NCBI GenBank assembly: GCA_945890755.1
Contig: CAMDDA010000001.1
Location: 7,656 to 71,655, forward strand
Length of the DNA stretch: 64,000 nucleotides
Direction: 5' to 3'
From: Candidatus Kuenenia stuttgartensis
Lineage (GTDB): Bacteria > Planctomycetota > Planctomycetia > Pirellulales > UBA1268
The notes under the pieces were generated by a model. That model did not search any database. It saw only the letters and a list, made by a program, of their open reading frames with translations, and had not been told where the DNA came from. The first letter of the stretch is position 1, and the number at the start of each line of letters is the position of its first letter. This document shows positions 2,468 through 33,527 of the stretch, in pieces. Made by a program: the position numbers and the translations under genes.

Positions 2468-3892
2468 ATGAGCCGCATCCTCATCGTCGACGACGAGCAC
2501 GCCATCGGCTGGAGTCTGCGCGAACTGCTCTCCGACGACGGCCATTCCGTCGAGGTCGCAGCGGACATCGACACCGCCCTCGACGCCTGCGCACGGCTGC
2601 ACCCCGACGCGATTCTGCTCGACGTGCGGCTGGGCTCACGCGACGGCCTGGCAGCGCTGCCCGACCTCCGGAAGGTTGCCGGCGACGTGCCCTTCGTCGT
2701 GATGACCGCATTTGGCGACCTCGACACGGCCGTGCGGGCCGTCCAGGCCGGCGCCGTCGATTACCTGCTCAAGCCCTTCGACCTGGAGAAAGTTTCGGGG
2801 GTGGTGGCCCGCGTCCTCGCCGACCGGGCGGCGCCGGCAGCCACCGCTGCAACCGCGGCCCAGTCGCCCGGGCAGATCGTCGGCTCGGCGCCACCGATGC
2901 AGGAGGTGTTCAAACAGATCGCGCTCGTCGCTCCCACCGATCTGCCGGTCCTCATCACCGGCGCCACCGGCACGGGCAAGGAACTGGCGGCCCGCGCGAT
3001 CCATGCCCACGGCCCACGCCGGGACGGCCCATTCGTCGCCACGAACCTCGCGGCCCTCGCACCGGGTGTCGTGGAGAGCGAGCTCTTCGGCCACGTCCGC
3101 GGCGCCTTCACGGGGGCGGCCGCCGACCGGCCTGGACTCTTCGACATGGCTGCCGGCGGCACGCTCTTGCTCGACGAGATCGGAGAGGCACCGGCCGACG
3201 TGCAGGCCAAGCTCCTCCGGGTGCTTGAGACGCACGAAGTGACGCCCGTGGGATCGGCCGTTGGGCATCCCGTGGACGTGCGCGTGATTGCGGCCACCAA
3301 CCGTGATCTCACGGCGGCGTGCGCGGCCGGCTCGTTTCGCGTTGATCTTCATCATCGGCTCCGGGGATTTCCAATCACGATGCCGTCGCTCGTCGAGCGG
3401 ACGTCCGACATCGAGCCGCTCGCCCGGCACTTTCTCGCCGCATTCGTCGCCCGGCACGGCGGCACGCCCCGCGGCGAGCTTCTGTCGCCCGAGTTTCTCG
3501 ACGCGATCGCGAAGCGGCCGTGGCCGGGCAACGTGCGCGAACTCAAGCAGACAATCGAGTATGCGGCGGTGCAGGCTCGGGGCGGCGTGCTGCGGCCCGA
3601 GCATCTCCCGGCACGGGCAACCGATGCCGCCGCGGCGAGCGGCGCACCAATCGACGTGGCCGCCGCGTCGGTCTCGGTTGCCATCAAGGCCTGGTCGGCC
3701 GCCGCCCGCCTGGCGTTCGGCGACTTCCCTGAGCCCGATCTCCATCGCCGCGCCGTGGATCTGCTCGACGCCACGCTCGTGCGTGAGACGCTCGCCCACT
3801 GCGGCGGCAATCGCACCGCCGCCGCGAAGCTCCTCGGCCTCGACCGGGCCACCCTCCGCACCCGCCTGCGGCTCCTCGGCCTCGACGAGTGA
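2468..3892 (+). CDS. sigma-54-dependent response regulator (NtrC family bEBP)
   Basis: REC domain (ILIVDDE...ILLDVRLG). AAA+ domain with Walker A GATGTGKE and a GAFTGA loop (RGAFTGAAADRPG). C-terminal Fis-type HTH (GGNRTAAAKLLGLDRATLRTRL). Confidence 0.88.
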   Translation: MSRILIVDDEHAIGWSLRELLSDDGHSVEVAADIDTALDACARLHPDAILLDVRLGSRDGLAALPDLRKVAGDVPFVVMTAFGDLDTAVRAVQAGAVDYLLKPFDLEKVSGVVARVLADRAAPAATAATAAQSPGQIVGSAPPMQEVFKQIALVAPTDLPVLITGATGTGKELAARAIHAHGPRRDGPFVATNLAALAPGVVESELFGHVRGAFTGAAADRPGLFDMAAGGTLLLDEIGEAPADVQAKLLRVLETHEVTPVGSAVGHPVDVRVIAATNRDLTAACAAGSFRVDLHHRLRGFPITMPSLVERTSDIEPLARHFLAAFVARHGGTPRGELLSPEFLDAIAKRPWPGNVRELKQTIEYAAVQARGGVLRPEHLPARATDAAAASGAPIDVAAASVSVAIKAWSAAARLAFGDFPEPDLHRRAVDLLDATLVRETLAHCGGNRTAAAKLLGLDRATLRTRLRLLGLDE

Positions 3893-30833: not shown

Positions 30834-30861
30834 TGATGTGCCTCGTTTGATGTGCCTCGTT
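30834..30861. repeat. perfect 14-bp tandem duplication at the birA start
   Basis: TGATGTGCCTCGTT occurs twice (30834-30847, 30848-30861). Copy 1 encodes ATG-TGC-CTC-GTT-TGA (MCLV*), whose TGA overlaps ATG 30850. Confidence 0.9.
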
Positions 30862-31698
30862 CGCGCAGACCATCCCGTGCCTACCTTTCCACCGCAGCTT
30901 GCCTCACACGCCGAGCCTCTCGATGCCGCCGCGCTCGCCGCGGCGGGCTACGCCACGGTCGTGCACCTGCCTGTCGCCGACTCGACGATGGTGGAGGCGC
31001 GGCGGCTGGCGGCCGATCCAGCGACGCGGCTGCCGGCGGTCGTGATCGCCGACCGGCAGCTGAGCGGCCGCGGCCGGCGCGGGGCCGGCTGGTGGCAGGC
31101 CGACGGCAGCCTCGCCGCGAGCATCGTGGCTGACGGGCCGGCATTCGGCCTGACCACTGCGAGCCCGCAGCCGGTCTGGTCGTTGGCCTGCGGCGTCGTG
31201 CTCGCGGAGACGATCCGCGCGTGCGAACCCGAAACCGACGTGCGGATCAAATGGCCGAATGACCTCGAGGTGGCGGGCCGCAAACTCGCCGGCATCATCG
31301 TCGAGGCCCACGCCTCGGGCCGCACGATCTTCGGGATCGGCGTCAACACGGCCGGCTCGGGGACCGCCGCCCCCGCTGGGCTCCGCGACCGAATCGTCAC
31401 GCTGCCGGACCTCGTGGGCCACGCGCTGTCGCGGTCACGGCTTCTCGCCGCCTGGCTGCAGCGGCTCCAACTTCTGCTCCGCGAGATGGATGCCGACCCG
31501 GCCGCCCTGGCGCGGCGGTATCTTCCCCTGTGCTGCCTCACGGGGCGGGTCGTGACGATTCACGTCGGCACGCAGCAGCACTCAGGCCTCTGCCACGGCA
31601 TCGCAGGCGACGGCGGCCTCGTCATCGACACGCCCGCCGGCCCGCGGACATTCGCCTCCGGCAGCCTCACGCCACCAGGGAGCGAGTGGCATCAATAA
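30838..31698 (+). CDS. birA: biotin--[acetyl-CoA-carboxylase] ligase (group I, no HTH)
   Basis: ADRQLSGRGRRGAGWWQADGSLAASIV and IKWPNDLEVAGRKLAGIIVE. The start is either GTG 30838 or ATG 30850. Confidence 0.82.
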   Translation: MPRLMCLVRADHPVPTFPPQLASHAEPLDAAALAAAGYATVVHLPVADSTMVEARRLAADPATRLPAVVIADRQLSGRGRRGAGWWQADGSLAASIVADGPAFGLTTASPQPVWSLACGVVLAETIRACEPETDVRIKWPNDLEVAGRKLAGIIVEAHASGRTIFGIGVNTAGSGTAAPAGLRDRIVTLPDLVGHALSRSRLLAAWLQRLQLLLREMDADPAALARRYLPLCCLTGRVVTIHVGTQQHSGLCHGIAGDGGLVIDTPAGPRTFASGSLTPPGSEWHQ

Positions 31699-31823
31699 AA
31701 GCCCCCAGGCGCAAGCCGGGGGATCGCGTTACAGGTGGGCGATATCGTGTCCATAAAAGCCCCCAGGCGCAAGCCGGGGGATCGCGCCACGTCATCCCCT
31801 CGCTCGCGCTCAGGGCTTGGATG
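31693..31823. repeat. composite palindromic intergenic repeat (two A units + one B unit)
   Basis: A units (c)AATAAAAGCCCCCAGGCGCAAGCCGGGGGATCGCG at 31693-31728 and 31751-31786. B unit (reverse) ATCCCCTCGCTCGCGCTCAGGGCTTGGATG at 31794-31823. The same units recur at 40.5, 43.0 and 45.5 kb. Confidence 0.9.
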
Positions 31824-32850
31824 CGCGGGCGACGACGCACACTTCTCGGCCGCCGGTCGAAAGCTGGCGGGCCTGAGGCCGAAAACCCCAGCCCCGAAAC
31901 GACGCCAGCCAGTCCGGCAAAGCCGCCGCCCGCGACCATTCCGGCAGCTTGAGCGTGGCGATGATCCCCCGCGGCCGCACGCCGGGAGCCGTGACGATCC
32001 GGCCCAGCGACTCCATCGTGCTCACCGGGTCGATGTTCATGTCGCACACGAGCCAGTCGAAGCCGCGAAACTCCCGCAGCTTCACGTCGCGGGCTCGCTT
32101 CCGCCACTGCATGAACCGCGGATGGGCGGCGACGACGGGATCGACGAGGGCCGGATCGATGCCCACCACGTCGAGCCCCGCCTCCAGGAGCCGCTGACAC
32201 GCCCCACCCGGCGCGGCGCCCAGTTCGACGGCCCGCTGTCCGGGGTCGAGGGCCGGCTCGAAGGTCGCGATCGCCTCGTCGAGCTTGAGCCAGGCGCGGC
32301 TCACAGCGCTCGGCGGCAGCGTGCCCGGGTAGATGCCGCCGGGCCAGCGACTCGGCGGCGTGGCCGCCCGATGCCAACCCACCCACCACCGCTCGGCTGA
32401 ATCGAGCACGCAATCGAGCACGCGATCGCCCGGTGCGGCGATCGTCGTCGTCGCCGTGATGCCGGCGGCCGCCAGCAGTCGGGAGCGGATCGCCTCGACC
32501 GACGCCTCGAGGGCAGGATCCCGGGCCCAGACGTGGACGTTCTGCCATGGCCCCGCGGCCATCGCGAGTGCCGCCGCCACCCGCGCGGCATCGTCATCGC
32601 CTGCCACCTGGCCGAGCGAGTGGACGCACGTGCGGGCGAAGACGAGATCGGTCCAGAAGTCGCGGGGCGGATCGAACGGCGGATGACCCGGCGGGTCGAG
32701 CCGAAACGTGACGACCCCACGCCGCCAGGCCGCCTTGCGAACCTGCGGTACGACCGCCTCTTGCCGACGGACGAGTTCCGCCTCCGCCCCGCCCCGGCAG
32801 GCGACGAGCAGAAACTGGCCGGAGGTTGCGGGAGCAGGCGTGGAGTCCAT
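31810..32850 (-). CDS. rlmM: 23S rRNA (cytidine-2'-O)-methyltransferase RlmM-like
   Basis: Internal ATG at 32850. Colinear with E. coli RlmM motifs as I recall them: SRAWLKLDEA (APSRSTLKLEEA), ELGAAPGG (DLGACPGG), WLVCDM (WMVCDM), ATLKLP (FNLKLP), ARQLSTGGREV. Confidence 0.75.
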   Translation of the reverse strand: MDSTPAPATSGQFLLVACRGGAEAELVRRQEAVVPQVRKAAWRRGVVTFRLDPPGHPPFDPPRDFWTDLVFARTCVHSLGQVAGDDDAARVAAALAMAAGPWQNVHVWARDPALEASVEAIRSRLLAAAGITATTTIAAPGDRVLDCVLDSAERWWVGWHRAATPPSRWPGGIYPGTLPPSAVSRAWLKLDEAIATFEPALDPGQRAVELGAAPGGACQRLLEAGLDVVGIDPALVDPVVAAHPRFMQWRKRARDVKLREFRGFDWLVCDMNIDPVSTMESLGRIVTAPGVRPRGIIATLKLPEWSRAAALPDWLASFRGWGFRPQARQLSTGGREVCVVARASKP

Positions 32851-32880
32851 CCCCAGAAGAGTATCCCGCAGAGGACCTGC

Positions 32881-32925
32881 CAAAAAATCAGGCCGGCCCG
32901 GGCGCCCAAGGGCCCGGGCCGGCCT
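32881..32925 (-). terminator. rho-independent terminator about 30 nt upstream of the rlmM-like start
   Basis: Minus strand: GGCCGGCCCGGGC-CCTTGG-GCGCCCGGGCCGGCC (32924-32891) followed by TGATTTTTTG (T-run = A-run 32882-32887 on plus). Confidence 0.8.
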
Positions 32926-33120
32926 TTCTCGTCTGAACGCTGACTCCCCGGATTCACTCCCGTCCGCGGGCGAACCCGGGAGGACGGACGAACCGGAGAC
33001 CAAGGACCGCGAGGCTCCCGAAGGAAACCTCGGGGGCAGAAGCGACCGTGGCCGAAGCCACGAGACTCCCCTGCCGAGGCTTTGTCGAGTCACCCGTTGC
33101 CGGGCCACTCAACGGATGCC

Positions 33121-33183
33121 TCAGCCGTGGCCCTTCTTCTTCTTGGCGACCTTCTTGGCAGCCTTCTTCTTCTTCTTGGCCAT
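33121..33183 (-). CDS. 20-codon Lys-rich micro-ORF (candidate leader peptide or small basic peptide)
   Basis: AGGAG (plus-strand CTCCT 33192-33196) lies 8 nt before ATG 33183. It encodes MAKKKKKAAKKVAKKKKGHG, with 11 Lys, all AAG. TGA at 33121-33123. It is shorter than any ORF listed in the track. Confidence 0.45.
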   Translation of the reverse strand: MAKKKKKAAKKVAKKKKGHG

Positions 33184-33527
33184 CGATCTGGCTCCTTCCA
33201 AACGAGCACCCGAACTAGGCTCACGTCCGCTCCCCGGGGCGCTCACACGACGGGAACGAACGACGTCATCGGCATGTGGAAGACCGCGATTGCTCGTGAT
33301 CCCCGCACGTCGATATGCACGTTGTGAAGGATGCTCCGGAAAACTGTCAAGAGAAATTCTCGAAAAATTTCAGGTTTTTTCCTGTTCCGAACCAGCGAGT
33401 GGCCTTCCAACCCCACCCGCGCATGCGGCGGCGACGACGCATCGGCTTGGTATCATCCGTGATTGAATCTCGCACGCTCCGTCGCGCGGCCCACGTTCTT
33501 CTTTCACTCTTCGCTCTGTTCAACACG

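Follow-up and report, generated by a model that had tools for sequence, protein, structure and literature searches.

A probable tiny, highly conserved lysine-rich gene with a pseudoknot leader and an invariant terminator-like hairpin precedes rlmM in uncultured planctomycetes

Does a short, lysine-rich open reading frame (ORF) in front of a gene for an rRNA methyltransferase serve as a leader peptide that regulates that gene, or is it a gene in its own right? This question is raised by a 64,000-nucleotide (nt) stretch of planctomycete DNA (GenBank assembly GCA_945890755.1, contig CAMDDA010000001.1, positions 7,656 to 71,655; hereafter the window), in which a micro-ORF of 20 codons lies on the minus strand upstream of a gene resembling rlmM. 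An earlier reading of the same DNA, referred to below as the original prediction, described the micro-ORF, a GC-rich structured stretch and a terminator, and interpreted them as attenuation of rlmM by the ribosome, with Lys-tRNA or stalling on poly-Lys as the signal. The layout mimics a textbook amino-acid attenuator, yet our analysis indicates that this reading is wrong here. The micro-ORF, its leader and its 3' hairpin, together called the micro-ORF unit, look instead like a minute stand-alone gene of uncultured freshwater planctomycetes that encodes a polycationic peptide and is conserved to a very high degree.

The basic elements are where the original prediction had placed them. The ORF starts with an ATG at 33183 and ends with a TGA (33123-33121), 11 of its 20 codons are AAG, and 8 nt separate the Shine-Dalgarno (SD) sequence AAGGAG (33197-33192) from the ATG (33183-33181). 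It is the sole Lys-rich small ORF within the window. A simple terminator scan found one site where 1.1 are expected in shuffled sequence, and thus proves nothing alone. The decisive evidence that the ORF, the SD and the hairpin are more than a chance assembly is their recurrence at other loci. We scanned one genome per species with the C-terminal pattern KKKK[G/A]HG-stop as a bait, which yielded at least 119 stretches, at least 73 of them harbouring the micro-ORF unit. A second scan, of metagenomes, used the 3' block described below as its only bait and yielded at least 120 contigs, 105 of which were testable. The unit is known from more than 180 related loci, in at least 73 species-level Planctomycetota genomes and at least 105 metagenome contigs, and its presence upstream of rlmM in relatives, with SD and hairpin, is confirmed. 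All contigs with rlmM homologues of 63-85% identity have the same micro-ORF upstream. Among the matches listed, a Lys/Ala/Val ORF lies upstream of the 3' block in all 105 testable contigs, and the block occurs only behind such a K-rich ORF. When the most divergent rlmM served as query in a further search, the matches came again from this uncultured clade. Three matches in viral contigs were discarded, as each is the N-terminus of a long unrelated protein.

All genome carriers among the matches listed are metagenome-assembled genomes (MAGs) of Planctomycetota, labelled Pirellulales, Planctomycetaceae, Planctomycetia and also Candidatus Kuenenia, and many of their names indicate lake samples; MAGs from Lake Mendota are among the carriers. 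The last label, which denotes anammox bacteria, is carried by the lake MAGs of loci L015, L017, L019, L050, L068, L072, L075, L078 and L085, and Planctomicrobium piriforme is the deposited name for L023 and L062. The gene content at the locus agrees with that of the Pirellulales-labelled MAGs, and therefore both names look unreliable.

Several features make translation of the micro-ORF very likely. Conservation across the loci covers the SD, ATG and a stop codon (TGA or TAG), and the ribosome-binding sequence AAGGAGCC is invariant in an alignment of 72 distinct leader sequences (alignment A3); it is mutated in L051, and L154 has TAGGAGG. The 56 distinct nucleotide versions of the ORF fall into 18 length classes (33-180 nt), every one a multiple of 3, and the peptide variants of 10-59 residues use no residues other than K, A, V, T and G, apart from an H, L or I at the end. 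Recurrent multi-allelic variation affects the third positions of the Ala2, Ala8, Val12 and Gly codons, while first- and second-position changes are singletons, except for Val/Ala at residue 12. In a relative with a GC content of 58%, AAG is replaced by AAA and the peptide is kept. The non-Lys residues (Ala, Val, Gly and His) are as well conserved as the Lys residues, and the peptide remains unchanged while the identity of rlmM to the window copy drops to about 50% in the genome loci; it is nearly identical across rlmM identities of 45-85%.

The peptide sequence is fixed within the main clade, from which a few in-frame length variants were also recovered: a 10-residue form, MAKKKKKGHG, in L014 (523-555), with a 30-nt deletion between the AAG runs, and a 29-residue form with an internal duplication in L068 (3400-3489) and L078. 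The 3'-block bait revealed sister forms, MAKKKKKAAKKVAKKKGKK and MAKKKKAAAKKVAKKKKK. One sister form, of 50 residues, consists of AKKK repeats, and those of 45-59 residues consist of nine-residue VAKKAAKKK repeats and end in AKL or AKI. Across loci the C-termini are GHG, GHK, GKK, KKK, AKL or AKI. The micro-ORF of L154 starts with GTG. In L051 (1165-1227) the ORF is interrupted, reading ATG GCG AAG TAG, and the SD is altered to AAGGTGCC; its pseudoknot, 3' block and promoter block are all intact, and the copy may be a pseudogene or an assembly error of the MAG.

Other coding possibilities in this region were considered and set aside. N-terminal extensions from upstream GTG or TTG starts (26-41 residues) lack conservation, and in many relatives an in-frame stop lies immediately upstream. 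An ORF of 252 residues on the opposite strand has no domain, and indels there are out of frame. The hairpin has no start codon, and the frame of the distance to rlmM is not kept, which speaks against a second ORF in it and against constraint from coding. A type I toxin-antitoxin peptide does not fit, as there is neither a hydrophobic stretch nor a conserved antisense feature.

The 5' leader has a variable distal part, and its proximal 60 nt comprise two crossing helices. Strong compensatory covariation shows that this proximal part folds as an H-type pseudoknot, with strands in the order P1a, P2a, P1b, P2b, P2a abutting P1b with zero nt in between, and loops that are about 7 and 14-18 nt long. 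P2b ends 6 nt upstream of the SD. In alignment A3, 96.5% of the cells are paired and 14 of the 20 pairs are altered on both sides (10 of 12 in P1, 4 of 8 in P2). None of 500 shuffles reached the observed pairing, and sliding the partner strand by 1-3 columns lowered it to 38-54%. In an enlarged set of 142 distinct leaders including metagenome variants, 95.6% of the cells are paired, and a single position can show as many as six kinds of pair. A covariance model built on the leader (R1) found exactly one strong match per unit and none elsewhere in the 1.44 Mb of window and loci searched. Only L154 lacks the pseudoknot among the loci compared, and the leader has no match in Rfam at E<=10. Two leader segments are near-invariant (minus strand), AACGUCGU entering P1 (33266-33258) and GUGAG leaving it (33224-33218). 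They may resemble helix 93 of 23S rRNA, GAACGUCGUGAGAC, a short match that could be due to chance.

Further upstream lies a promoter-like block made of an A/T-rich stretch, TCTCTTGACAGTTTTC and CATCCTTCACAAC, which is near-invariant in the main clade. The motif TTGACA-N-CACAA(C) occurs once in the window, where 0.01 occurrences are expected, and once per locus of the family, always at the micro-ORF unit. In the most divergent clades the block was not found within 300 nt of the ATG, and a sigma-70 consensus scan made no call on it. Both this block and the pseudoknot are additions to the original prediction, the latter just outside its coordinates. Between pseudoknot and ORF (33199-33178, minus strand), a GCCA 3' of the SD has two possible partners: the preceding UGG(C), in which case the SD lies in a loop, or the start-codon segment AUGGC, in which case the AUG is paired. 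These two short hairpins are mutually exclusive, and covariation is uninformative for them because their columns are nearly invariant.

The region downstream of the stop codon consists of two very different parts. The ~195-nt structured RNA of the original prediction does fold strongly (z = -5.5 for 32875-33225), and its three listed stems, CCGTTG/CAACGG (33115-33094), GTGGC-TTCG-GCCAC (33061-48) and the CGTCCG/CGGACG region (32990-57), are present, but they are conserved neither in sequence nor in number or length among relatives. The spacer between stop codon and terminator ranges from 63 to 217 nt and contains in each relative 2-5 unrelated stable hairpins, which change in sequence, number and length; a weakly conserved hairpin lies just 3' of the stop codon. 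Comparison of the 3' part with Rfam yielded noise only.

The spacer is followed by a 55-nt block composed of the single-stranded segment CAGACGAGAAA, a GC hairpin of 16 bp and a U-run (UGAUU(U)n across the family). Its form is that of an intrinsic terminator, as the original prediction had recognized: the stem has 14 bp (13 GC pairs) in the scan and 16 bp with a bulge in the minimum-free-energy fold (32925-32890), with six T at 32887-32882, and termination is predicted. Across 66 genome and 109 metagenome loci, near-identity extends to the loop, 5' flank and 3' arm, all outside the baits of both scans; the only changes there are two single ones in the hairpin, one in the 5' flank and one in the loop. 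The block is identical even in a relative with a GC content of 58%. The hairpin change in L123 destroys the modelled stem, and a minority of loci have a degenerate U-run. The same loci combine a fixed 3' hairpin with leader helices that covary freely. Terminators normally evolve freely, since their function needs stability rather than a given sequence. Thus, something appears to read the sequence of this block, in RNA or in DNA. Several specific ideas were rejected: a hammerhead-like reading of GAAA-stem-CUGA has no Rfam support, the single GGA motif that a CsrA sponge could use is located in the SD, and pairing of the 3' flank with the leader or the promoter block amounts to only 5-6 bp, the last two points coming from reading the sequence.

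Table 1. Features of the micro-ORF unit and flanking genes in the window
Feature	Position	Strand	Details
Promoter-like block	33321..33380	-	A/T-rich 33380-33351; consensus -35 TTGACA 33350-33345; CATCCTTCACAAC ending 33321
H-type pseudoknot, 5' leader	33204..33262	-	P1 33262-33251/33235-33224; P2 33244-33237/33211-33204
Ribosome-binding region	33184..33200	-	SD AAGGAG 33197-33192, 8-nt spacer, ATG
Micro-ORF	33121..33183	-	MAKKKKKAAKKVAKKKKGHG + TGA; 20 codons, net charge about +11
Variable 3' UTR (untranslated region)	32937..33120	-	Five stable hairpins in the window; strong fold; the 'structured RNA' of the original prediction
Invariant 3' block	32882..32936	-	Single-stranded UCAGACGAGAAA; hairpin GGCCGGCCCGGGCC / CUUGGGCG / CCCGGGCCGGCC; then UGAUUUUUU
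rlmM-like gene	31810..32850	-	23S rRNA C2498 2'-O-methyltransferase, 346 residues; Pfam FtsJ, E = 3.4e-11
Class I/II aminotransferase gene	from 33564	+	Divergent from the unit

The rlmM-like gene follows the unit closely. The spacing of 31 nt between T-run and gene given in the original prediction stands, while the ATG itself is at 32850-32848, one base off the predicted 32851. A start at 32850 agrees with homologues of 346 residues and 85-90% identity, several of which are named 23S rRNA (cytidine2498-2'-O)-methyltransferase. A longer ORF of 432 residues running through the terminator (31810-33108, minus strand) is an over-call, as the closest homologues fit the 346-residue start. Several rlmM calls in databases are similarly over-extended through the hairpin, e.g. 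to 405 residues in P0072/L008 (L008 2501-3718), which is typical of high-GC DNA. In nearly every locus with enough room, rlmM is directly downstream on the same strand, usually starting about 25-110 nt past the hairpin, and no conserved sequence was found between terminator and rlmM in the compared loci. As the interval leaves hardly any space, or none, for a second promoter, rlmM is probably fed by read-through, and the terminator probably throttles it as a constitutive valve rather than as a sensor. One metagenome contig departs from this arrangement (L135, contig Ga0209284_10000694, 58% GC). It has a complete unit at 3147-3360 and no rlmM within 10 kb, with an inositol-1-phosphate-synthase-like gene upstream and a convergent gene of 1200 residues downstream. 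Its hairpin is thus placed between convergent genes, like a bidirectional terminator.

These data allowed us to weigh the proposal that ribosome progress over the Lys codons selects between the terminator and competing stems and so controls rlmM. Such an attenuator would combine a short ORF dominated by one codon, a hairpin within a few nt of its stop, a strong terminator and a gene on the same strand, all of which are seen here, the gene being almost always rlmM with scant room for a promoter of its own. We folded the loci with a partition-function (equilibrium) model for four ribosome states, i.e. no ribosome, a ribosome at the stop codon, one stalled in the first Lys run, and the whole ORF covered. 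The median probability of the terminator stem was 0.98 in all four states across the modelled loci; the outliers were L123, whose variant hairpin gave 0 in every state, and L121, which gave 0.37 only with the ribosome at the stop. The model assumes equilibrium, but the hairpin is local and extremely stable. Moreover, a competitor of an invariant terminator arm should itself be conserved, and the unconserved spacer contains no such conserved complement. Conservation of Ala, Val, Gly and His along with Lys, the separate structured leader upstream of the ORF, a downstream gene of FtsJ/RlmM type without a link to lysine, and the L135 unit followed by a convergent unrelated gene instead of rlmM also speak against attenuation, which we consider extremely unlikely. 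A related idea is that translation of the polylysine ORF acts as a readout of the peptidyl-transferase centre or of the exit tunnel, e.g. of a missing Cm2498, and tunes rlmM in response. The window peptide is too short ever to leave the exit tunnel and the linkage of the micro-ORF to rlmM is tight and widespread; there is also a precedent in ermB and ermC, rRNA methyltransferase genes controlled by short leader peptides (PMC8274638). However, alternative pairing does not reach the terminator, the interval between terminator and rlmM is unconserved, and the L135 unit does without rlmM. The peptide also varies in length (10-59 residues) and in its C-terminus, whereas arrest peptides are fixed in sequence and length. 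This sensor is thus very unlikely as well.

Two other alternatives concern the product of the unit. In one, the RNA itself would be the main product, with a dual or a regulatory function; its pseudoknot and 3' block (CAGACGAGAAA plus hairpin) would bind a protein or base-pair with targets, and the ORF would be secondary. An unrecognized structured RNA with a 5' micro-ORF had also been named in the original prediction. It stays a candidate because the most conserved parts lie at the RNA level: the 3' block is more conserved than the ORF and is invariant in sequence rather than only in structure, its layout of a terminator hairpin flanked by a conserved single strand resembles that of small RNAs derived from 3' UTRs, and the leader covaries strongly. 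L051 retains leader and hairpin despite its premature stop, but this copy is perhaps an assembly error. The constraints on the ORF at the peptide level (SD, ATG, stop, restricted residues and synonymous change), together with the failure to find a target, a partner or an Rfam match, make this explanation rather improbable in our view. Alternatively, the peptide could be a lineage-specific tiny ribosomal protein whose leader mimics rRNA for autoregulation, encoded beside rlmM because the peptidyl-transferase centre would be the site of action of both products. Autoregulation of ribosomal proteins typically involves pseudoknot leaders next to the ribosome-binding site (RBS), the sequence is fixed in the main clade, and the neighbouring gene is that of a 23S C2498 methyltransferase. 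The model for such a protein would be actinobacterial bL37 or bS22; bL37 is a basic protein of 24 residues found in one phylum only, which sits beside H89 at the peptidyl-transferase centre, near the RlmM-modified residue (PMC5876184). In sister clades, the length range of 10-59 residues generated by repeat number argues against a defined rRNA pocket, as it does against an arrest peptide. The lack of Arg and aromatic residues and of a sequence match to any chain of the Protein Data Bank (PDB), ribosomal peptides included, further reduces the appeal of this proposal, which we find quite improbable.

The explanation that we favour, and regard as probable, is that of an autonomous, feedback-controlled and probably highly expressed micro-gene for a polycationic micro-protein similar to histone H1 tails. 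An independent small transcript for a highly basic peptide was one of the alternatives mentioned in the original prediction, and it gains from the conservation of the peptide and the dedicated leader; autonomy of the unit is indicated by its own promoter-like block, its own terminator and its occurrence without rlmM in L135. Transcription would start at the conserved promoter-like block, and the leader would fold into the covariation-supported pseudoknot that ends just before a strong SD. The ORF would then yield the peptide with its 11 lysines, as its conservation patterns suggest. The stack of variable hairpins and the invariant GC hairpin with its U-run would end and protect the transcript, a role that their form suggests. 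Judging by its composition, the peptide would act as an H1-tail-like polycation that binds DNA, rRNA or polyphosphate. More speculatively, the pseudoknot could provide translational feedback if the product, or the polycation balance of the cell, stabilized a densely charged fold near the RBS. With the terminator as a fixed valve, rlmM would be fed by a small read-through fraction, as the spacing suggests.

Several observations do not sit easily with this explanation. The most conserved element is an RNA or DNA hairpin rather than the peptide, and the micro-gene account leaves it unexplained. The near-universal linkage with rlmM hints at a functional tie, which the same account treats as piggy-backing. 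The -10 element of the promoter-like block is not canonical. The excess of third-position changes is not significant alone by a plain column count (p = 0.13), and in-frame indels are partly mechanical, due to slippage of trinucleotide repeats. Finally, similarity to H1-like proteins is only compositional: with the long variants, HC2 is matched at E = 2.8 (8.4 bits, for a cut-off of 40) and hist_H1_lk_Burk at E of about 3 (2.9-7.5), i.e. at chance level. A more ambitious version of the micro-gene hypothesis, which we consider unlikely, is a charge-sensing ribonucleoprotein circuit in which the micro-protein binds its own leader pseudoknot, the 3' hairpin or both, and thereby sets its own synthesis and the read-through into rlmM. 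If true, it would represent a new class of riboregulators sensing a polycationic peptide or the balance of polycations and polyanions in the cell, along with a new family of 20-residue micro-proteins associated with the nucleoid or the ribosome in Planctomycetes.

The surroundings of the unit vary among loci. In about half of the genome loci the aminotransferase gene is located about 1.6-1.8 kb upstream rather than about 0.4 kb, with an additional 1.2-1.4 kb in between, and the unit stays with rlmM. In L008 (894-2129), a gene for inositol-1-phosphate synthase (Pfam NAD_binding_5 / Inos-1-P_synth) is present between the divergent aminotransferase gene and the unit. On the other side of rlmM, the window contains a biotin/lipoate ligase gene (30838-31698, plus strand). 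In a sub-clade comprising L005 (4743-6008), L006 and L007, it is replaced by a gene of the baeRF family (bacterial eRF1-like) and a second aminotransferase gene downstream of rlmM.

Database searches returned no known relatives. Neither the region nor the whole window has a match in Rfam at the gathering threshold, a scan for tRNA and tmRNA genes found none, and the 20-residue peptide matches nothing in Pfam or NCBIfam and no PDB chain at E<=10. A PDB search with a variant of 58 residues gave one chance-level match, to a GCN4 fusion (E = 0.56), and a protein-database search with the same variant scored 8000 candidates, none of which passed. An exact look-up of five called or predicted versions of the peptide in a collection of 15 billion proteins found none of them. 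Our literature searches found no mention of the peptide or of an rlmM leader, and one search, not pursued further, turned up no planctomycete ribosome structure.

Each component is of a known kind, namely a small basic protein, a pseudoknotted leader and an intrinsic terminator; the novelty lies in their combination, in the extreme conservation of a 20-residue polylysine peptide and in the invariance of the hairpin. The unit would add to an under-studied phylum an overlooked family of micro-proteins, with 11 lysines among 20 residues and near-unchanged over dozens of species, and its pseudoknot is a covariation-supported RNA motif new to Rfam. The invariant terminator hairpin points to a sequence-specific reader. 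The unit also raises the questions of how cells control the dose of a potentially toxic polycation and whether the nucleoid, the ribosome or polyphosphate is the target of such peptides.

Among known proteins, the closest analogues of the peptide are the H1-like proteins, i.e. Hc1 and Hc2 of Chlamydia, AlgP of Pseudomonas and those of Burkholderia and Bordetella. Chlamydiae and Planctomycetes belong to the same superphylum. These proteins share with the peptide low-complexity K/A/V repeats and length variation between close relatives through repeat number, a hallmark of H1-like tails at constant K/A/V composition, and by analogy a role in binding polyanions may be expected for both. The size of Hc2 varies with the number of lysine-rich pentamers (PMC2848022), and AlgP was found at polyphosphate granules (PMC9239181). 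In contrast with them, the peptide is 3 to 10 times shorter (20 residues in the window), and the unit has a dedicated pseudoknot leader, an invariant terminator and a fixed place upstream of rlmM. As the HC2 and Burkholderia H1-like profile matches are not significant, the relationship is one of functional analogy and not of membership. The tiny ribosomal proteins bL37, bS22, Thx and eL41 resemble the peptide in being 20-30 residues long, extremely basic, missed by annotation and restricted to one lineage. The peptide differs from them by its variable length, its charge carried by Lys only and the absence of sequence similarity.

The regulatory architecture also has known counterparts. Control through leader pseudoknots, comparable to that proposed here, is known for T4 gene 32 protein and for ribosomal protein S15, and the gene 32 pseudoknot nucleates the binding of a non-specific binder. 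The leaders of rpsO (S15), of the alpha operon (S4) in E. coli and of T4 gene 32 are, like that of the unit, 5' leaders with an H-type pseudoknot directly upstream of the RBS of a gene for a nucleic-acid-binding protein, a putative one in the case of the unit. The S15 and S4 pseudoknots take in the SD or the AUG, whereas that of the unit stops short of the SD; there is no homology, and binding of the product is hypothetical here. In the trp, his and pheA attenuators and the erm leaders, as in the unit, a short ORF with one codon over-represented comes before hairpins, a terminator and a gene, and in the erm case the regulated gene also codes for an rRNA methyltransferase. In contrast to them, the unit has no alternative fold, a long unconserved spacer, a peptide conserved beyond its Lys residues and a leader of its own, and it can occur without the downstream gene. 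A parallel in gene order is provided by operons such as rpsU-dnaG-rpoD and rpsO-pnp, where a partial terminator separates a small gene with high expression from that of a low-abundance enzyme, and in which, as in the unit, a likely strong promoter and a small gene for a basic protein are followed by a strong terminator and a gene for an enzyme without room for its own promoter. The unit differs from these operons in that its first gene has only 20 codons and its terminator is invariant in sequence over an order-level clade.

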